This document shows positions 1,890 to 10,409 of a DNA stretch of 14,261 bases, piece by piece. How positions within the stretch are numbered: position 1 is the first letter of the stretch; each line of letters begins with the position of its first letter. The DNA lies in UHGV virus genome UHGV-0247634. One strand, given 5' to 3'. The position numbers and the translations under genes are program-made. This DNA is from a virus. The notes under the pieces were generated by a model. That model did no database searches and was not told the DNA's origin. It saw only the letters and a list, made by a program, of their open reading frames with translations.

Positions 1890-2372
1890 ATGTCAGGACC
1901 CCCGAAAACCCCGCCACGCCTGCATTTGATACGAGGCAACCCCTCAAAGCGCCCCGTTAAAGACCCAAAAAAAACCGCTAAAAAGGATGAAAAAGGTCTC
2001 CCTAAAATTCCGCAGCATTTAGGGGTGCAGGGGAAGTACTGGTTCAGGCGAATGGCGGAAGAACTGAATGCGGAAGGGATCATTTCTCAGCTTGATGCGC
2101 GTGCACTCGAGTTACTGGTGGAAGCCTACACCGAATACCGGCATCACTGCGAAACACTTGATGCTGAGGGTTATACCTACCGCACGGAAACGCAGAACGG
2201 TGATGTGCTGATTAAGGCACACCCGGCTGCTGCGATGAAAGCGGATGCCTGGAAGCGGATCCGGGCGATGCTTGCAGAGTTTGGTATGTCACCGGCAAGC
2301 CGGGCGAAAGTAAATACCGCCGGACCGGATGATGTTGATCCGCTGGCGGAACTTTTAAAAGCGAGAGACTGA
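1890..2372 (+). CDS. terminase small subunit, P27 family
   Basis: 160-aa ORF. N-terminus MSGPPKTPPRLHLIRGNPSKRPVKDPKK matches the characteristic GRPPKP...L.GNPGKRP signature of P27-family small terminases as I recall it. Stop overlaps the large terminase start (ATGA at 2370-2374). Confidence 0.85.
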   Translation: MSGPPKTPPRLHLIRGNPSKRPVKDPKKTAKKDEKGLPKIPQHLGVQGKYWFRRMAEELNAEGIISQLDARALELLVEAYTEYRHHCETLDAEGYTYRTETQNGDVLIKAHPAAAMKADAWKRIRAMLAEFGMSPASRAKVNTAGPDDVDPLAELLKARD

Positions 2373-4129
2373 TGGCAAAAGTGGCTGACGGGATCCGCTA
2401 CGCCGAACGTGTTGTTGCAGGAGAAATTGTCGCTGGCGAATTTGTCCGTCTGGCCTGCCAGCGTTTTCTTGATGATCTGAAGTACGGCGAAGAGCGGGGG
2501 ATTTATTTCAGTGAACCCCGTGCGCAGCACATCCTGAATTTCTACAAATTTGTGCCCCATGTAAAAGGGGCGCTGGCAGGCCAGCCCATTGAACTGATGG
2601 ACTGGCATGTATTTATCCTCATTAATATTTTTGGTTTTGTCATTCCGCTGGTCAATGAAGAGACCGGGGAAGTTGTCATGCGCAGCGATGGCAGCGGACG
2701 TCCGGTGATGGTGCGCCGGTTCCGGACGGCGTACAACGAAGTCGCCCGTAAAAACGCAAAATCAACCCTGTCATCGGGTATCGGCCTGTATATGACGGGG
2801 GCAGATGGTGAAGGCGGGGCTGAGGTGTATTCAGCTGCAACCACGCGTGACCAGGCCAGAATTGTGTTTGAAGACGCCAAAAATATGGTCAGAAAAGCCC
2901 GGTCGACACTCGGGCGATTGTTTGATTTCAACAAGCTGGCGATTTACCAGGAGCAGAGCGCATCAAAATTTGAACCGCTTTCCTCGGATGCAAACAACCT
3001 GGACGGTCTGAACATCCACTGCGCCATTATTGATGAGCTGCATGCACATAAAACCCGTGATGTGTGGGATGTTCTGGAAACGGCAACCGGTGCCCGTCTG
3101 CAGTCCCTGTTATTTGGTATCACCACGGCAGGCTTTAACAAGGAAGGGATCTGTTACGAGCAGCGTGATTACGCCATTAAGGTATTGCGTGGCTATAACA
3201 GCAACGTGGAGGGCGCGGTAAAAGACGACTCCTACTTTGCGATCATTTACACGCTCGATGAGGGAGATGATCCGTTTGATGAAACGGTCTGGCAGAAAGC
3301 GAATCCCGGCCTGGGCATCTGTAAACGCTGGGATGATCTGCGTCGTCTGGCGAAAAAAGCGAAGGAGCAGGTTTCAGCGCGGGTGAATTTTTTCACGAAA
3401 CACATGAATGTGTGGGTCACTGCCGAATCTGCCTGGATGGACATGATTAAGTGGGAGAAGTGCGAATATATTGCTCCACAGCATGAGCTGAAAACCTATC
3501 CCATGTGGGTCGGCGTCGACCTTGCTCATAAGATTGATATCTGTGCGGCGGCAAAACTCTGGCGAACCGATAACGGACATGTTCATGCTGATTTTAAATT
3601 CTGGCTCCCGGAAGGACGGCTGGAGCGGTGCTCGCGGCAGCAGGCAGAACTTTACCGGAAATGGGCCGAGATGGATAAGCTCATCCTGACGGATGGTGAT
3701 GTTATCGATCATGCTCAGATAAAAAGTGACTTACTGGAATGGATTGGTGGTGAAAACCTGAGGGAGCTGGGATTTGATCCGTGGAGCGCGATGCAGTTCA
3801 GTCTGGCGCTGGCTGAAGAAGGGATACCGCTGGTGGAGGTTCCGCAGACGGTCCGCAATCTGTCAGAGGCCATGAAGGAAACGGAATCACTGGTCTATGC
3901 CGGGCGTTTCCATCACAGCAATCACCCGGTCATGAACTGGATGATGTCTAACGTTACGGTAAAACCGGACAAAAACGACAATATCTTCCCGAACAAATCC
4001 ACGCCGGAAGCCAAAATCGACGGTCCTGTTGCGATGTTTACAGCAATGAGCCGGATGCTGGTCAATGGCGGTGAACCGGAGCCGGATCTGTCTGAGCATC
4101 TGGTCAGCGTTGGTATCCGCTCGCTTTAA
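2372..4129 (+). CDS. terminase large subunit (ATPase plus nuclease)
   Basis: 585-aa ORF immediately after the small terminase. Walker B-like hhhhDE ([10 protein letters not shown]) in the N-terminal half and an acidic RNase H-like nuclease motif ([12 protein letters not shown]) in the C-terminal half. Size and position typical of TerL. Confidence 0.93.
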
Positions 4130-4140
4130 CCGAGGTCATT

Positions 4141-4323
4141 ATGTTTCTGATAATTCTCACACCACTGGTTGGCGTGCTGGGGGCGCTTTTGCTGTCGTAT
4201 GGCACATGGCTGATTTATCCCCCGGCAGGTTTTGTTGTTGCCGGGGCGCTGTGCCTGTTCTGGTCGTGGCTGGTTGCTCGTTATCTCGATCGCGGTCAGC
4301 GGGTCGCCTCCGGAGGTGAGTAA
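4141..4323 (+). CDS. hypothetical small membrane protein (two predicted TM helices) between terminase and portal
   Basis: 60-aa ORF ([49 protein letters not shown]...) with GC-rich third-position codon pattern like neighbouring genes. Stop TAA overlaps the portal ATG (TAATG at 4321-4325). No family recognised. Confidence 0.5.
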
Positions 4324-5564
4324 TGTTTTTCCAGGGGCTTTTTCAACGCAAAAATAACACTCCCGTTACAACACCCGGGATGCTTGCGGAAGAGCTGGGA
4401 TTGTCATACGACACCTATACCGGAAAGCGGATCAGCAGTCAGCGGGCCATGCGGCTGACGGCGGTTTATTCCTGCGTCAGGGTGCTGGCGGAGTCTGTTG
4501 GTATGCTGCCCTGCAGTCTCTACAAAATCACCGGCACCCTTAAAACACGCGCGGTGGATGAACGACTGCATAAGCTGATTTCGGCAAAACCCAATGGCTA
4601 CATGACGCCGCAGGAATTCTGGGAACTGGTCATTGTCTGCCTGTGTCTGCGGGGGAATTTTTACGCCTACAAGGTGAAGGCGCTGGGGGAAGTTGTGGAG
4701 CTTCTTCCGATAGATCCGGGCTGTGTGGAACCGAAGCTGAACAGCCAGTGGCAGCCGGTTTATCAGGTGACGTTTCCGGATGGCTCCGTGGATGTGCTGA
4801 CCCAGAATGAAATCTGGCATGTGCGCACTCTGACGCTGGACGGACTGGTCGGGCTGAATCCCATTGCGTATGCGCGTGAGGCCATTTCACTGGCAGCGGC
4901 AACTGAGGAGCACGGCGCCAGGTTGTTTGGTAACGGCGCTGTGACATCCGGTGTGTTGCGTACGGATCAACAACTTTCTGATCAGGCTTATGCGCGTATC
5001 AAAAAGGACTTTGAGGAACGGCATGTCGGGCTGGGAAATTCTCATCGTCCGATGATTCTGGAAATGGGGCTGGACTGGAAAACGGTGGCACTGAATGCCG
5101 AGGACAGCCAGTTCCTGGAAACCCGCAAGTTTCAGCTGGAAGAAATCTGTCGCCTGTTCCGCGTGCCGCTGCATATGGTGCAGAACACCGATCGCGCCAC
5201 CTTCAACAATATTGAAGAGCTGGGGCTTGGTTTCATTAACTATTCCCTTGTGCCGTATCTGACCCGTATTGAACAGCGGATCAATACAGGGCTGGTCAGG
5301 GAGAGCAAGCAGGGGAAGTTTTACGCCAAATTTAATGCCGGAGCATTGTTGCGTGGCGACATGAAATCCCGCTTTGAAGCGTATGCCACGGGGATCAACT
5401 GGGGGATTTATTCCCCTAATGACTGCCGTGATCTGGAAGATATGAATCCCCGACCGGGCGGTGATGTGTATCTGACACCGATGAACATGACCACCAGTCC
5501 CTCTGCTGGCGATGACAACGGTAAGAAAAAGGAGAGTGGAGATGCAGACAAAACAGCGTCTTGA
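4323..5564 (+). CDS. portal protein, HK97 family
   Basis: 413-aa ORF directly downstream of the large terminase and upstream of the prohead protease; SD GGAGGT precedes the ATG. Size and gene order match HK97-type portal proteins. Confidence 0.88.
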   Translation: MFFQGLFQRKNNTPVTTPGMLAEELGLSYDTYTGKRISSQRAMRLTAVYSCVRVLAESVGMLPCSLYKITGTLKTRAVDERLHKLISAKPNGYMTPQEFWELVIVCLCLRGNFYAYKVKALGEVVELLPIDPGCVEPKLNSQWQPVYQVTFPDGSVDVLTQNEIWHVRTLTLDGLVGLNPIAYAREAISLAAATEEHGARLFGNGAVTSGVLRTDQQLSDQAYARIKKDFEERHVGLGNSHRPMILEMGLDWKTVALNAEDSQFLETRKFQLEEICRLFRVPLHMVQNTDRATFNNIEELGLGFINYSLVPYLTRIEQRINTGLVRESKQGKFYAKFNAGALLRGDMKSRFEAYATGINWGIYSPNDCRDLEDMNPRPGGDVYLTPMNMTTSPSAGDDNGKKKESGDADKTAS

Positions 5565-6192
5565 TATACCGCTGAACCTGAAATCCGTCAGTGATTCCGG
5601 GGAATTTGAAGGTTACGGTTCTGTTTTTGGTGTTAAGGACAGCCACGATGATGTGGTGGTCCCCGGAGCCTTTACCACAACACTCCAGAAATGGAGCGAA
5701 AAAAAGGCGCTGCCTGCGTTGCTCTGGCAGCACCGCATGGATGAGCCCATCGGTGTGTACACCGAAATGAAAGAAGACGATGTCGGGCTTTATGTCAGGG
5801 GGCGATTACTCGTTGATGATGATCCCCTGGCAAAACGTGCACATGCCCATATGAAGGCCGGTTCTTTAACCGGCCTTTCTATTGGCTACATCCTGAAAGA
5901 CTGGGAGTACGACCGTGAAAAAGGGGTATTCCTGCTGAAAGAGATCGACCTGTGGGAGGTCAGTCTGGTGACGTTTCCTTCCAATGATGAGGCACGCATC
6001 AGCGATGTGAAAAATGCGCTGGCGCGTGGGGAGATCCCTGATCAGAAAATTATTGAGCGAGTCCTGCGCGATGTTGGACTCTCGCGAACCCAGGCCAAAG
6101 CATTCATGGCCGGGGGATATGGCGCTTTATCCCTGCGTGATGCTGAGGATGTGGATGCCGCACTGAATGCACTGAAAAATCTTAAATTTTAA
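5542..6192 (+). CDS. prohead maturation protease, HK97 family (peptidase S78/U35)
   Basis: N-terminal region MQTKQRLDIPLNLKSVSDSGEFEGYGSVFGVKDSHDDVVVPGAF is characteristic of HK97 gp4-type prohead proteases. Start chosen at ATG 5542 with SD AGGAG at 5531-5535; the ORF-track start at 5512 is an in-frame upstream extension. Overlaps the portal 3' end by 23 nt. Confidence 0.88.
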   Translation: MQTKQRLDIPLNLKSVSDSGEFEGYGSVFGVKDSHDDVVVPGAFTTTLQKWSEKKALPALLWQHRMDEPIGVYTEMKEDDVGLYVRGRLLVDDDPLAKRAHAHMKAGSLTGLSIGYILKDWEYDREKGVFLLKEIDLWEVSLVTFPSNDEARISDVKNALARGEIPDQKIIERVLRDVGLSRTQAKAFMAGGYGALSLRDAEDVDAALNALKNLKF

Positions 6193-6205: not shown

Positions 6206-7432
6206 ATGGCTGTTGATATTAAAGACGTGGAACAGGTCGCGCAGGATTTGCAGCAGAAGTTTGACGATTTTAAGGAAAAAAACGACAAACGCATTGACGC
6301 GATCGAGCAGGAAAAGGGAAAACTTGCCGGAGAAGTGGAAAACCTCAACGAAAAACTGACTGAACTGGAGAACCTGAAAAGCGACCTGGAAAAAGAGCTG
6401 GCAGACATCAAGCGTCCGGCAGGCGGCACGCAAAATAAAGTTGCCAGTGAACACAAAGAAGCGTTTATCGGATTTATGCGCAAGGGGCGTGAAGACGGTC
6501 TGCGTGAGCTTGAGCGTAAGGCGCTGCAGGTGGGCAATGATGAAGATGGTGGTTATGCCATTCCGGAAGAACTGGATCGCACTATTCTGACGCTGCTGAA
6601 AGATGAGGTAGTGATGCGCCAGGAAGCCTCTGTGATCACCCTCGGTGGCTCGGATTATAAAAAACTGGTGAATCTGGGCGGCACAACGTCCGGATGGGTG
6701 GGGGAAACGGATGCACGTCCGGAAACCGCCACCTCAAAACTGGGGCTGATTGAACCCTTTATGGGGGAAATCTACGGCAACCCGCAGGCCACCCAGAAAA
6801 TGCTCGATGACGCTTTCTTCAATGTGGAAGACTGGATCAACAGTGAGCTGGCGCTGGAATTTGCCGAACAGGAAGAAATTGCCTTTACCAGTGGCGACGG
6901 CAGCAAAAAACCAAAAGGTTTTCTGGCTTATGAGTCCACCGATGAAGATGACAAGACCCGTGCGTTTGGCAAACTTCAGCACATTGCTTCCGGTGCGGCT
7001 TCCGGCGTGACTGCCGATGCGATCATTAAACTGATTTACACCCTGCGCAAGGCGCATCGCAGCGGCGCGAAGTTCATGATGAACAACAGCAGCCTGTTTG
7101 CCATTCGTCTGCTGAAGGATAACGACGGAAATTATCTGTGGCGTCCGGGTATTGAGCTGGGTCAGCCTTCTTCTCTGGCAGGGTATGGCATCGTTGAGAA
7201 TGAACAGATGCCGGATATTGCTGCCGATGCAAAAGCCATTGCGTTTGGTAACTTCAAACGTGGCTATACCATCGTTGATCGCATCGGTACCCGTATCCTG
7301 CGCGATCCGTACACCAATAAACCGTTTGTGGGTTTTTATACCACCAAGCGAACCGGCGGTATGCTGGTGGATTCTCAGGCGATTAAGCTGATGAAAATTG
7401 GGGCTGCAACCCGCCAGAAAGCCGCTGCGTAA
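6206..7432 (+). CDS. major capsid protein, HK97 fold, with N-terminal coiled-coil scaffolding (delta) domain
   Basis: 408-aa ORF after the protease. First ~70 residues are charged and heptad-like (DLQQKFDDFKEKNDKRIDAIEQEKGKLAGEVENLNEKLTELENLKSDLEKELADIK), typical of the delta domain in HK97-type capsid proteins; no separate scaffold gene is present. SD AGGAG at 6195-6199. Confidence 0.9.
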   Translation: MAVDIKDVEQVAQDLQQKFDDFKEKNDKRIDAIEQEKGKLAGEVENLNEKLTELENLKSDLEKELADIKRPAGGTQNKVASEHKEAFIGFMRKGREDGLRELERKALQVGNDEDGGYAIPEELDRTILTLLKDEVVMRQEASVITLGGSDYKKLVNLGGTTSGWVGETDARPETATSKLGLIEPFMGEIYGNPQATQKMLDDAFFNVEDWINSELALEFAEQEEIAFTSGDGSKKPKGFLAYESTDEDDKTRAFGKLQHIASGAASGVTADAIIKLIYTLRKAHRSGAKFMMNNSSLFAIRLLKDNDGNYLWRPGIELGQPSSLAGYGIVENEQMPDIAADAKAIAFGNFKRGYTIVDRIGTRILRDPYTNKPFVGFYTTKRTGGMLVDSQAIKLMKIGAATRQKAAA

Positions 7433-7444
7433 TGCAGTTTTTTA

Positions 7445-7466
7445 TGCCCGCACAGTGTTGCGGGCA
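7445..7466 (+). promoter_or_regulatory. perfect 8-bp stem-loop immediately after the major capsid gene
   Basis: tgcccgca (7445-7452) pairs with tgcgggca (7459-7466), loop cagtgt. No U-tract follows, and the 3' arm abuts the SD AGGAG (7466-7470) of the next gene. Likely an RNA stability or translational-coupling element rather than an intrinsic terminator. Confidence 0.35.
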
Positions 7467-7476
7467 GGAGTTTCTG

Positions 7477-7794
7477 ATGGCCGCAATAGTGGAAAAACTC
7501 AGGGCGCAGTGCCGTATTGATACAGATGATGCAACTGATGATGAGTTACTGATGCTGTATTTCCGGGCTGCCTGCCGTAAGGCAGAAAATTTTATCAACC
7601 GTAAGCTTTATGAGGAGACGGTGCCGGAAGGTGATCCTGACGGGGTGCTTATAGCTGATGATGTTTTGCTGGCGCTCATGTTGCTGGTCGGACACTGGTA
7701 CGAAAACCGGGAAAATTCCTCAGATGTCAGCAAAGCACCAGTCCCGTTTGGTTTTTCTTCTCTGCTGGAGCCTTATCGTTTTATTCCTTTGTAG
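7477..7794 (+). CDS. head-tail connector protein (phage gp6-like)
   Basis: N-terminus MAAIVEKLRAQCRIDTDDATDDELLMLY fits the usual pattern of gp6-like connector proteins. Start at ATG 7477 with SD AGGAG 7466-7470 preferred over the ORF-track start at 7432, which would translate through the hairpin. Confidence 0.7.
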   Translation: MAAIVEKLRAQCRIDTDDATDDELLMLYFRAACRKAENFINRKLYEETVPEGDPDGVLIADDVLLALMLLVGHWYENRENSSDVSKAPVPFGFSSLLEPYRFIPL

Positions 7795-7802
7795 GAGGAA
7801 TC

Positions 7803-8141
7803 ATGCAGGCGGGCAGATTACGTGATCGCGTAACTATTCTGAATGTCACCACCGTCCGTTCTCCGTCAGGGCATCCGGTGGAGACAATGACGGAGGGGGC
7901 AACCGTATGGGCAGAAGTTAAGGGGATCAGCGGGAGAGAGAGAATATCAGGAGGTGCAGAAACCGCTCAGGCTACAGTCAGAGTCTGGATGAGATTCCGG
8001 CGCGATGTGACAGCGACTTCACGTCTGAAAGTGCTGACCGGTGCATTTAAAGGGGCCACTCTTGGTATAGAAGGGCCACCAATACCGGATGCACGCGCCA
8101 CCCGGCTTGAAATACTCTGCAGCCTGAAGGGGAATGTGTGA
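7803..8141 (+). CDS. head closure / head-tail adaptor protein
   Basis: 112-aa ORF with strong SD (GGAGGA) and the typical N-terminus (MQAGRLRDRVTILNVTTVRSPSGHPVETMTEGATVWAEV) of SPP1 gp16-type head-tail joining proteins. Follows the connector gene. Confidence 0.7.
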   Translation: MQAGRLRDRVTILNVTTVRSPSGHPVETMTEGATVWAEVKGISGRERISGGAETAQATVRVWMRFRRDVTATSRLKVLTGAFKGATLGIEGPPIPDARATRLEILCSLKGNV

Positions 8142-8948: not shown

Positions 8949-8974
8949 ACCCGCCGCTGGCGGGTTTTTATTTT
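8949..8974 (+). terminator. rho-independent terminator-like hairpin plus U-tract between neck genes and major tail gene
   Basis: acccgcc (8949-8955) pairs with ggcgggt (8959-8965), loop gct, followed by tttttatttt. Canonical intrinsic terminator geometry on the + strand. Confidence 0.55.
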
Positions 8975-8986
8975 CAGGAGACGAGT

Positions 8987-9691
8987 ATGTCCTCTAATTT
9001 TGAGCGTTCGCAACTGACGAAAATTATGATTTCGTCTGCACCGGTAACAGCAGAAACCCTGGATTCTGCCAGCTATCTTGGCCTGAGCTGTACAATCAAA
9101 GAGGTGCAGTTTACCGCAGGACAAAAGCAGGATATTGATGTCACCACGCTGTGTTCTGTTGAGCAGGAAAATATTAACGGTCTTGGTGCCGCGTCAGAGA
9201 TTTCCATGTCAGGCAACTTTTACCTTAATGCTGCCCAGAACGCGTTGCGCAGTGCCTATGACAATGACACCACGTATGGCTTTAAAGTTATTTTTCCGTC
9301 AGGAAACGGATTTACCTTTATGGCAGAGGTGCGTCAGCATACCTGGTCTGCAGGAACCAATGGTGTTGTGGCTGCAACGTTTTCCCTGCGCCTGAAAGGT
9401 AAACCTGTGCTGACGACAGAGCCGCTGAAAGTGAAGGTAGATTTAAACAGCACGCTGCAGGTTTCTGCCGGAGCGAAACTCGAAATGGTGGTTGAGGCTG
9501 CCGGTGGTGTGCCGCCTTATTCTTATGTCTGGAAGAAAGGTAGTTCTCCTGTTTCCGGACAGACGGCGGCAACGTTCAGTAAGGCATCAGCAGCATCCGG
9601 TGATGCCGGTGCGTATACCTGCGAGATTTCTGATTCAGCAAGCCCGGTTAACAAAGTGACCACCACTTCCTGCACTGTAACCGTCAGTTAA
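8987..9691 (+). CDS. major tail (tube) protein with C-terminal Ig-like domain
   Basis: 234-aa ORF with SD AGGAG 8976-8980. The N-terminal ~140 aa has a tail-tube-like region (GFKVIFPSGNGFTFMAEV, reminiscent of lambda gpV KIRFPNGT). The C-terminal ~90 aa resembles an Ig-like domain (VKVDLNSTLQVSAG...GGVPPYSYVWKKG...AGAYTCEISDSA...CTVTVS). Immediately precedes the G/GT chaperone genes. Confidence 0.8.
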   Translation: MSSNFERSQLTKIMISSAPVTAETLDSASYLGLSCTIKEVQFTAGQKQDIDVTTLCSVEQENINGLGAASEISMSGNFYLNAAQNALRSAYDNDTTYGFKVIFPSGNGFTFMAEVRQHTWSAGTNGVVAATFSLRLKGKPVLTTEPLKVKVDLNSTLQVSAGAKLEMVVEAAGGVPPYSYVWKKGSSPVSGQTAATFSKASAASGDAGAYTCEISDSASPVNKVTTTSCTVTVS

Positions 9692-10077
9692 TGAGGATGG
9701 ATGTGATGACTAAAAATATCCGTAATCTTGCACTGGCAACGATGTCGGGGTTTCGCCATAAAACCGTTGATGTGCCTGAATGGGAGGGAGCAACGGTTGT
9801 GTTACGGGAACCTTCTGCAGAAGCCTGGTTGCGCTGGCAGGAGATCGTTAAAGCCAGGGAAGATGATACATCGCCATCTGTTGCAGAGCGTGCCCGCCGA
9901 AATCTGGAGGCGGACGTTGAGCTGTTCATTGATGTTCTGTGTGATACCGGGCTGCAACCCGTATTTTCAGAGGATGATCGTGAACAGGTGATTGCCGTGT
10001 ATGGCCCGGTGCATGCCCGGCTTCTTCGCCAGTCTCTGGAACTGATCAGTGATGCCGGAGAGGTTAAAAAAAAGTAG
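9691..10077 (+). CDS. tail assembly chaperone (gpG-like)
   Basis: ORF between the major tail and tape measure genes, ending in a slippery A-run. Alternative start ATG 9706 has SD GAGGA at 9693-9697; ATG 9691 overlaps the upstream stop (TAATG). Confidence 0.75.
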   Translation: MRMDVMTKNIRNLALATMSGFRHKTVDVPEWEGATVVLREPSAEAWLRWQEIVKAREDDTSPSVAERARRNLEADVELFIDVLCDTGLQPVFSEDDREQVIAVYGPVHARLLRQSLELISDAGEVKKK

Positions 10078-10379
10078 CGCTTCCGGGGATGCGTTTTCTG
10101 ATGATGCTGGCGCTCAGGATGGGGCGCACATTGTCAGAGTTACGCCGGGAAATGTCCGCATCAGAAATCATGATGTGGGCAGAATTTGACAGGTTCAGCC
10201 CGCTGGGGGACGAACGGGCTGATATCCGGGCTGCCCAGATTGTTTCAGCTGTTTACGGTGCGCAGGGGGTTAAAGTACCACTGAATGATGTGCTTCTTCA
10301 GTGGGAGCAGGAGCAGACAGAAGGCGCCTCAGATCCATTTGCCGGGCTGGAAAACGCGCTTTTAACCGTGTCTCAGTGA
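9691..10379 (+). CDS. tail assembly chaperone frameshift fusion (gpGT-like), produced by -1 ribosomal frameshift at 10068-10074
   Basis: The zero-frame codons AAA AAG (10069-10074), preceded by A at 10068, form the slippery heptamer A_AAA_AAG just before the G stop (TAG 10075-10077). The -1 frame is open from 10074 through the downstream ORF to its stop at 10379. The distal part (MRFLMMLALRMGRTLSELRREMSASEIMMWAEFDRFSPLGDERADIRAAQIVSAV) resembles the lambda gpT family. Confidence 0.7.
10068..10074 (+). promoter_or_regulatory. programmed -1 ribosomal frameshift slippery heptamer A_AAA_AAG
   Basis: Same heptamer type as the E. coli dnaX frameshift site, located at the 3' end of the gpG-like ORF with the downstream ORF in the -1 frame. 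Confidence 0.65.
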
Positions 10380-10387
10380 GTCAACAT

Positions 10388-10409
10388 AACCGCTTCGGCG
10401 GTTTTTTTT
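10388..10409 (+). terminator. rho-independent terminator-like hairpin (UUCG tetraloop) plus U-tract upstream of the tape measure gene
   Basis: aaccgc (10388-10393) pairs with gcggtt (10398-10403), loop ttcg, followed by a T-run to 10409. Lies 9 nt after the GT stop and 10 nt before the tape measure ATG. Confidence 0.5.

Follow-up and report, generated by a model that had tools for sequence, protein, structure and literature searches.

A conserved two-hairpin RNA module at the capsid-connector junction of HK97-like phages of enterobacteria

Our analysis concerns a 14,261-nt stretch of viral DNA (UHGV virus genome UHGV-0247634), referred to throughout as the window, which corresponds to the late (morphogenesis) operon of a temperate phage or prophage of HK97-like type. 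The subject is a pair of hairpins, hp1 and hp2, located where the major capsid gene gives way to the gene for a gp6-like head-tail connector. A sequence-only reading of this DNA had named the gene upstream a capsid gene and the gene downstream a connector gene, and both identities are upheld by Pfam; the latter is also annotated as 'head-tail connector protein' in RefSeq E. coli genomes. The features of the locus are as follows.

1890-2372: small terminase gene (Pfam)
2372-4129: large terminase gene (Pfam)
4323-5564: portal gene (Pfam)
5512-6192: S78 prohead protease gene (Pfam)
6206-7432, plus strand: major capsid protein gene (HK97 fold), phiP27-like (Pfam PF05065 Phage_capsid, E 6e-81)
7424-7438, plus strand: hp1, a weak hairpin, G-CUGC-GUAAU-GCAG-U, of -6.0 kcal/mol (terminator scan)
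7439-7444, plus strand: T-run (TTTTTT, then A7444), the U-tract of hp1 and the single-stranded spacer between hp1 and hp2 (sequence)
7445-7466, plus strand: hp2, a perfect 8-bp GC clamp hairpin, TGCCCGCA-CAGTGT-TGCGGGCA, of -18.5 kcal/mol
7467-7470, plus strand: Shine-Dalgarno (SD) sequence GGAG of the connector gene, 0 nt from hp2 and 6 nt before the ATG (sequence)
7477-7794, plus strand: gp6-like head-tail connector/adaptor (Ad1) gene, Evi-like (Pfam PF05135, E 2.4e-14)
Downstream of the connector gene: head completion, HK97-gp10-like, tail completion and major tail protein genes (Pfam)

Further along the operon, after the major tail gene, the open reading frames 9691-10077 and 10089-10379 lie in frames 1 and 0, the layout expected for a tail assembly chaperone pair produced via a -1 frameshift, as annotated in HK97. 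A connector lengthened at its N-terminus by starting at the in-frame ATG 7432, which overlaps the capsid stop codon as TAATG and would give an open reading frame of 7432-7794, was rejected because close relatives differ in the length of the T-run (5 to 9), which shifts the frame, and because Evi-type phages differ in the upstream sequence.

The capsid gene stops at TAA 7430-7432 and the connector gene starts at ATG 7477, and the order of elements 3' of the TAA is gcagttttttat, TGCCCGCA, cagtgt, TGCGGGCA, GGAG, tttctg and ATG. The two arms of hp2, TGCCCGCA at 7445-7452 and TGCGGGCA at 7459-7466, are perfect reverse complements with six G-C pairs, and they enclose a 6-nt loop, CAGTGT, at 7453-7458. 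The sequence-only reading was right to describe a perfect 8-bp stem at 7445-7466 that begins 13 nt past the capsid stop; it placed the hairpin relative to the ribosome binding site (RBS) in two ways, of which 'abuts' is accurate, the 3' arm ending at 7466 and GGAG occupying 7467-7470, and 'overlapping' is not. It did not see the element immediately upstream at 7424-7444, where hp1, whose loop contains the capsid stop codon, is followed by TTTTTTAT to form a terminator-like site. With the TTTTTAT that follows it, hp1 has the GC hairpin and U-tract of an intrinsic terminator, here a weak one. hp2 is not terminator-like: it is followed directly by GGAGTTTCTG (its 3' flank reads GGAGUUUCUG, or GGAGGAAAA in sister variants), has no U-tract and is absent from the list returned by the terminator scan. 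The upstream terminator-like element, rather than hp2, is the candidate 3'-end former at this junction. On the minus strand hp2 is followed by UAAAAAA; a minus-strand terminator was considered and rejected, there being no promoter-like site nearby.

BLAST matches of the window to phage genomes split at this junction. The genome of phiP27 covers 6214-7443 with 96.6% nucleotide identity, and Evi, PhiR49_2, vB_EcoS-689R5 and other E. coli siphophages match 7438-8141 at about 96%, so that the phiP27 match stops at 7443 and the Evi-type match starts at 7438. Over the 300 nt upstream of the T-run the window is 97.7% identical to phiP27 and unalignable with Evi; over the 300 nt downstream the identities are 58.3% to phiP27 and 98.0% to Evi. 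Judged by these identities, the window is a mosaic of a phiP27-like head (capsid) on the left and an Evi-like neck and tail on the right, the joint falling within the T-run (7438-7443). This recombination joint at the hairpin site, apparent from the BLAST split and the flank identities, had escaped the sequence-only reading. Among complete E. coli genomes, 711 of 5,426 match part of 7330-7580, and only 33, NZ_CP059835 among them, carry the whole hybrid. Both parental types have the hairpin. The phiP27 junction reads ...TAAtgcgg-T8-g-TGCCCGC-gtaatg-GCGGGCA-caGGAGgaaaatATG, with a stem identical to that of the window and a different loop and connector gene; the Evi junction follows a different capsid gene with ACCGCG-ccga-CGCGGT-T7-a and then has hp2, SD and ATG identical to those of the window.

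hp2 forms the 3' half of a conserved module of two hairpins that many phages of enterobacteria carry between their capsid and connector genes. Scanned for the pattern with the stem sequence held fixed, IMG/VR yielded the architecture hp1 + T7-9 + R + TGCCCGC-loop-GCGGGCA + Y + GGAG + ATG in 44 distinct contexts, nearly all of them with a capsid-like open reading frame of about 410 aa upstream and a connector-like one of 105-107 aa downstream, the connector homologues being 37-71% identical to the window protein. In these contexts hp1 consists of (N)CCGC, a GNRA-like loop and GCGG, followed by T7-9; the hp2 loop is 4-8 nt long and highly variable, and GGAG stands 5-8 nt before the ATG. Two further scans dispensed with the fixed hp2 stem, one anchored on hp1 and the other on connector-protein homology alone. 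In the hp1-anchored scan, a subset of CCGC-N4-5-GCGG-T7 terminators has a second hairpin with a different stem (GCCCUC/GAGGGC, GCCCUG/CAGGGC, GCCCCG/CGGGGC or UGCCCGUC/GACGGGCA), with connector-like genes next to it. Among the loci found through connector homology, hp1 and its T-run are present in every locus with a capsid-connector intergenic gap, and hp2 is present in most, with lineage-specific stems: GCCCGCAG-UUCG-CUGCGGGC; GCCCGUAA-UUCG-UUACGGGC, with two compensatory changes; variants of CUGUGGGC with G·U pairs; the 11-bp CCUGCAAUCUG-GCAA-CAGGUUGCAGG; and ACCUGCGAUC...GGUCGCAGGU. In a few of these loci (L451-L455) the terminator is followed directly by the SD, without hp2, and some loci have another upstream gene and no gap. 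Throughout the related modules the position of the elements is fixed: an equivalent CCGC-loop-GCGG hairpin (hp1) occurs in every one, hp2 always starts 0-1 nt past the T-run, and the gap from stem to SD is -1 to 2 nt in most. A genome-wide scan with the hp2 pattern was linked to a connector gene in only 4 of 82 matches, which are too heterogeneous to define a host range.

Several other settings were also recorded. More distant connector relatives (L456-L475) lack intergenic hairpins; the gene before the connector closes with long GAGCCA/CAGAGC repeats (Glu-Pro or Gln-Ser-like) and leads directly into the connector start. The ST64B/SfI-type relatives of the capsid (L119-L163) have one strong hairpin, GGGGCGCG-GAAC-CGCGCCCC, behind the capsid gene and no T-run, together with a compensatory variant, GGGGCGCA-GAAG-UGCGCCCC; at this position another lineage has therefore conserved a hairpin that lacks a U-tract. 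Many chromosomal terminators of Pseudomonas, Comamonadaceae and other Proteobacteria (L476-L555) carry TGCCCGC-loop-GCGGGCA straight after the T-run in non-phage settings, some of them (L483 and L516) flanked by a T-run and, on the opposite side, an A-run.

The module recurs at joints other than that of the window. In two recombinants (L414 and L187) the break falls within the 5' arm of hp2, and in a third (L173) at the 3' end of hp2. Clustering of the 200-nt flanks at 80% identity gave 24 upstream types and 32 downstream types with many reassortments between them; three capsid types, for instance, occur with the window-type connector, and two connector types with the phiP27 capsid. It follows from these joints and reassortments that the conserved module acts as a short boundary sequence at which homologous exchange takes place. 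Short conserved boundary sequences have been proposed to serve the modular exchange of phages, and have seldom been seen at actual joints (PMC3029335). In our reading the module, about 45 nt long and common to otherwise unrelated sets of head and neck genes, for that reason serves as a homologous crossover point, and the window is one recombinant of this kind; it is also a concrete and well-populated case of a boundary sequence at which phage modules recombine, a mechanism long proposed and rarely documented with several independent joints.

Covariation in the clamp stem was assessed on a full set of 63 distinct instances (A5) and an unbiased set of 27 (A6), aligned with a covariance model since MAFFT alone mis-registered the 3' arms. 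Standard pairs fill 95.6% of cells in the full set, against 90.3% in shuffles, and 91.7% in the unbiased set, against 88.5% (0/500 shuffles as high in either case), values to be read with the caveat that fitting alignments to a covariance model biases them towards that model's structure and that the sequences are related to one another. Six pairs are altered on both sides in the full set (1/500 shuffles) and five in the unbiased set (0/500), and the covariation scores are 0.171 and 0.140, against 0.079 and 0.086 in shuffles (0/500 as high for both). Slid controls pair only 32-50% (full) and 30-49% (unbiased) of cells, with covariation scores of at most 0.041 and 0.062. In the inner six pairs of hp2 G·U is present and A·C never is, and the loop ranges from 3 to 17 nt across modules; both properties point to a plus-strand RNA structure rather than a DNA site. 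Taken together, the covariation data indicate that this structure is under selection, and they speak against a DNA palindrome or a product of chance. The base after the T-run also covaries with the base after the 3' arm (G-C in 18 cases, A-U in 14, G·U in 4 and other combinations in 17), so that the helix extends fully to the U-tract and SD in many variants.

The consequences for the connector RBS were explored by folding 59 natural variants in about 130 nt of context. In these predictions, which as thermodynamic folding leave out ribosomes and co-transcriptional kinetics, hp2 pairs with a probability of about 1.0 and the SD is unpaired with a mean probability of 0.19. Its partner is the U-tract with a mean probability of 0.41 (above 0.8 in several variants), as a U-A/U·G extension of hp2, or sequence downstream with a probability of 0.31, often CUCC in codons 2-3 of MLL-type connectors. 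Opening the region from SD-4 to +13 is predicted to cost 14.4 kcal/mol with hp2 and 9.7 kcal/mol with its 5' arm broken; the minimal footprint from SD to +13 is little changed by the same break. The window variant lies at the open end of the range, with the SD 0.45 unpaired, an SD:U-tract pairing probability of 0.18 and an A·G mismatch (A7444/G7467) between stem and U-tract, and the predicted effect there is mainly a structured standby site, with masking of the SD marginal. Structured standby sites upstream of an SD have been found to change translation initiation more than 100-fold (PMC3936740). The minimum-energy fold of the window also pairs CAGAAA at 7415-7420, where the capsid coding sequence ends, with UUUCUG at 7471-7476, in the spacer between SD and ATG, to form a three-way junction around hp1 and hp2; this long-range pairing is probably fortuitous because its arms come from two different parental modules.

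The sequence-only reading had suggested that structures such as hp2 can stabilize the abundant capsid message and throttle translation of the low-copy connector. Part of this suggestion stands: a conserved plus-strand structure lies between the genes for a very high-copy capsid and a low-copy connector and touches the SD. Its supposed effect on the RBS is likewise borne out in part, by the predicted structuring of the standby site and by the predicted masking of the SD in many variants, against which the SD of the window itself is predicted to be roughly half open. Conservation, position and predicted folding are compatible with both connector throttling and protection of the capsid segment.

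Starting from the observed structure, its conservation and covariation, its fixed position with respect to U-tract and SD, and the recombination joints, we infer a function that combines termination, differential stability and translational throttling. We give about even chances to a model in which expression drops from capsid to connector through a two-part RNA module acting in cis. In this model hp1 and the U-tract would act as a leaky terminator that stops a fraction of transcripts past the capsid gene. On the transcripts that read through, hp2 would bar 3'-to-5' decay, so that the capsid segment outlives the RNA downstream, and it would maintain structure at the standby site of the connector. 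hp2 might in addition, in many variants, keep the U-tract paired (U-A and U·G) with the purine-rich SD, in a fourU-like manner. Initiation at the connector would thereby be lowered and coupling to the heavily translated capsid gene blocked, the net result being a high ratio of capsid to connector expression (about 415 to 12 copies per virion). Phages are known to use inefficient (leaky) terminators to balance expression (PMC9163698). Several findings count against the step-down model: hp1 is weak in the window, at -6.0 kcal/mol; masking of the SD is predicted to be marginal there, with the A·G mismatch between stem and U-tract; some relatives lack hp2 (the few loci noted above, and HK97 with its single hairpin); and other low-copy genes of the operon, such as that for the tape measure protein, have a terminator and no clamp. 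A more specific version, in which the U-tract of the capsid terminator doubles as a fourU-like anti-SD sequence and the module is also a preferred crossover between head and neck/tail genes among Enterobacterales phages, we advance only as a tentative possibility. Were this dual use of the U-tract real, transcription and translation would both be stepped down between capsid and connector by a single module of about 45 nt. A module working as the step-down model proposes would constitute a compact and portable rule for the roughly 35-fold difference in output between adjacent genes of an HK97-like operon, of use in phage engineering and in the annotation of late operons, without overturning current views.

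Other explanations for hp2 have to be set beside the step-down model. Taken by itself, hp2 is only moderately unusual: perfect stems of at least 8 bp with a loop of 3-8 nt occur at two sites in the 14.3-kb window, and shuffles lead one to expect 1.3 hairpins of at least 8 bp per window, a number that might favor a chance palindrome. The expectation falls to 0.28 with at least six G-C pairs, and the pattern GCCCGC-N3-9-GCGGGC, of which the window has one copy, is expected 0.01 times; the 86-nt region folds with z = -4.36, and hp2 sits in one of the few intergenic gaps. What places hp2 beyond chance is its conservation with covariation in dozens of other phages, and a chance origin, already refuted by these comparative data, can be dismissed with near certainty. 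The window's one remaining perfect hairpin with a stem of 8 bp or more is a 10-bp palindrome, AAGGCCGGTT-CTTT-AACCGGCCTT, at 5854-5877 inside the prohead protease gene, where it encodes KAGSLTGL; it is retained in 80 related loci and only its loop varies (TCT or TCG), and no conclusion can be drawn from this because the loci are close relatives and the site is coding. That hp2 has no function as RNA, being instead a linker spread by recombination or a DNA palindrome (a protein-binding or cruciform site), seems to us very unlikely. The module is clearly a crossover point, and in one relative (IMGVR_UViG_3300023038_000043; L116, at about 2739-2761, and L178) the hp2 loop is CATTAC, the exact reverse complement of the GTAATG loop in its closest relatives, as if the palindrome had flipped; yet compensatory changes preserve pairing across lineages with G·U and never A·C in the inner six pairs, and so variable a loop length is incompatible with a fixed spacing of half-sites.

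Two further alternatives grant hp2 a role as RNA. It could be the second hairpin of a tandem terminator, adding termination or pausing past the capsid gene, as would fit the frequency of tandem hairpins after genes, the many Pseudomonas/Burkholderiales terminators that are followed by a TGCCCGC...GCGGGCA hairpin in non-phage settings, and the annotation of the single HK97 hairpin at the same position as a putative terminator. Intrinsic termination by E. coli RNA polymerase depends on a U-tract, however, and hp2 is followed by GGAGUUUCUG or GGAGGAAAA instead, is not in the terminator scan list and has the SD as its conserved neighbor; we regard this reading as rather improbable. Processing by RNase E we rate no higher: the enzyme would cut in the U-tract between hp1 and hp2, leaving the capsid mRNA capped by hp1 at its 3' end and hp2 as a protective 5' hairpin of the neck and tail mRNA, and the two segments would decay independently. 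A U-rich single strand flanked by hairpins is the geometry of RNase E and Hfq sites, and both the U-rich segment between two stable hairpins and the start of hp2 at 0-1 nt from the T-run are conserved. Protection of the 5' end would nonetheless raise expression of the connector, which is hard to reconcile with a 12-copy protein, and the position of hp2 flush with the SD would be left unexplained.

A number of known identities were also considered for hp2 and rejected. An RNase III site was rejected because an 8-bp stem is too short for this enzyme. A protein-binding hairpin (MS2-coat-like) or a DNA operator is unlikely, the loops being hypervariable in sequence and length and the stems different between lineages. 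A REP/BIME repeat was rejected because the window has a single copy with no Rfam or repeat match, and the hp2 sequence is unlike the REP consensus. Searched with Rfam at gathering thresholds, the whole window gave no matches. A permissive scan of 7350-7550 returned the sRNA Esr41 (Rfam RF02676) at 18.9 bits, against a threshold of 102, with E 0.08-0.15, and this identity was rejected. Esr41 is an sRNA encoded by SpLE1 (PMC5286369). The sub-threshold similarity to this EHEC sRNA spans 7424-7475, and the terminator stem-loop of Esr41, GCCgGCaCUAUGUGUuGCuGGC, resembles hp2, GCCCGCACAGUGUUGCGGGC, with compensating differences; the two are not of the same family, and a common origin is conceivable.

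Regarding known systems, a hairpin after the capsid gene is in itself an already known and annotated kind of feature. Literature searches returned no paper describing the two-hairpin module, and we found no description of the combination seen here, in which terminator and clamp are separate and the clamp adjoins the SD, the clamp stem covaries, the U-tract has the potential to pair with the SD, and the module has a role in crossover. The closest known feature is the 'putative terminator' at 5192-5213 of HK97 (NC_002167), between gene 5 (major head) and gene 6 (Ad1). It occupies the same gap, between genes for an HK97-fold capsid and a gp6-like connector, and it too is a GC-rich hairpin with T's a few nucleotides before the connector start; the window likewise has a stable hairpin between such genes. 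The HK97 hairpin is single (GGGGGCGGG-GAAA-CCCGCCC + TTTT) and ends 9 nt before the gp6 ATG, whereas the window has a separate terminator-like hairpin and a stronger clamp, with the U-tract between them and the SD right after the clamp. Putative terminators are also annotated in HK97 on either side of the major tail gene and ahead of the tape measure gene. Their counterparts in the window, at 8949-8965 and 10388-10403, lie directly before the SDs of the major tail and tape measure genes; these two, like a further one at 727-752, are canonical terminator-like hairpins with long T-runs, and neither of the two has a second clamp hairpin.

The protective role proposed for hp2 has precedents in intercistronic hairpins that set subunit ratios by acting as mRNA decay terminators, such as the stem-loop of the Rhodobacter puf operon and the malE-malF REP hairpins. 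The likeness lies in a stable stem-loop just past a high-abundance cistron and before low-abundance cistrons on a polycistronic mRNA, and hp2, at -18.5 kcal/mol and with covariation, is a conserved stable stem-loop downstream of the more abundant cistron. It has no sequence relationship to these elements, in contrast, and is single-copy and tied to an upstream U-tract and a downstream SD, and its role is predicted. In the fourU RNA thermometer of Salmonella agsA, pairing between a U-run and the SD is the operating principle (PMC3185406). Here too a U-run and the SD (AGGA/GGAG) lie opposite each other on the two sides of an inner stem-loop, matched by U-A and U·G pairs, and the phiP27-type variant is predicted to form exactly such a structure. 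The differences are that the U-run is also the U-tract of a terminator, that the inner stem is a very stable GC clamp, that the U:SD helix of the window is weak, and that the setting is a phage structural operon rather than the 5' UTR of a heat-shock or virulence gene. The predicted opening of the SD with temperature is only gradual, its unpaired probability in the window rising from 0.32 at 20 C to 0.51 at 45 C and in the phiP27 type staying at or below 0.03 in full and 0.06 in short context. No release of the SD over the physiological temperature range was seen in silico for the window or the phiP27 type, and because the predicted response is so shallow we do not class the module as a thermometer.

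The transcriptional half of the module recalls T-phi of T7 and other leaky terminators, where a terminator right after the major capsid gene lowers transcription of lower-copy structural genes downstream (PMC9163698). T7 relies on its own RNA polymerase and one strong hairpin, whereas the site described here is terminator-like for the host polymerase and is combined with an RBS-proximal hairpin. As regards exchange, the module resembles the boundary sequences of PMC3029335 in being a short sequence common to otherwise unrelated modules and located exactly at mosaic joints; it differs from them in that the shared sequence is a structured, putatively regulatory module with several independent joints inside it.
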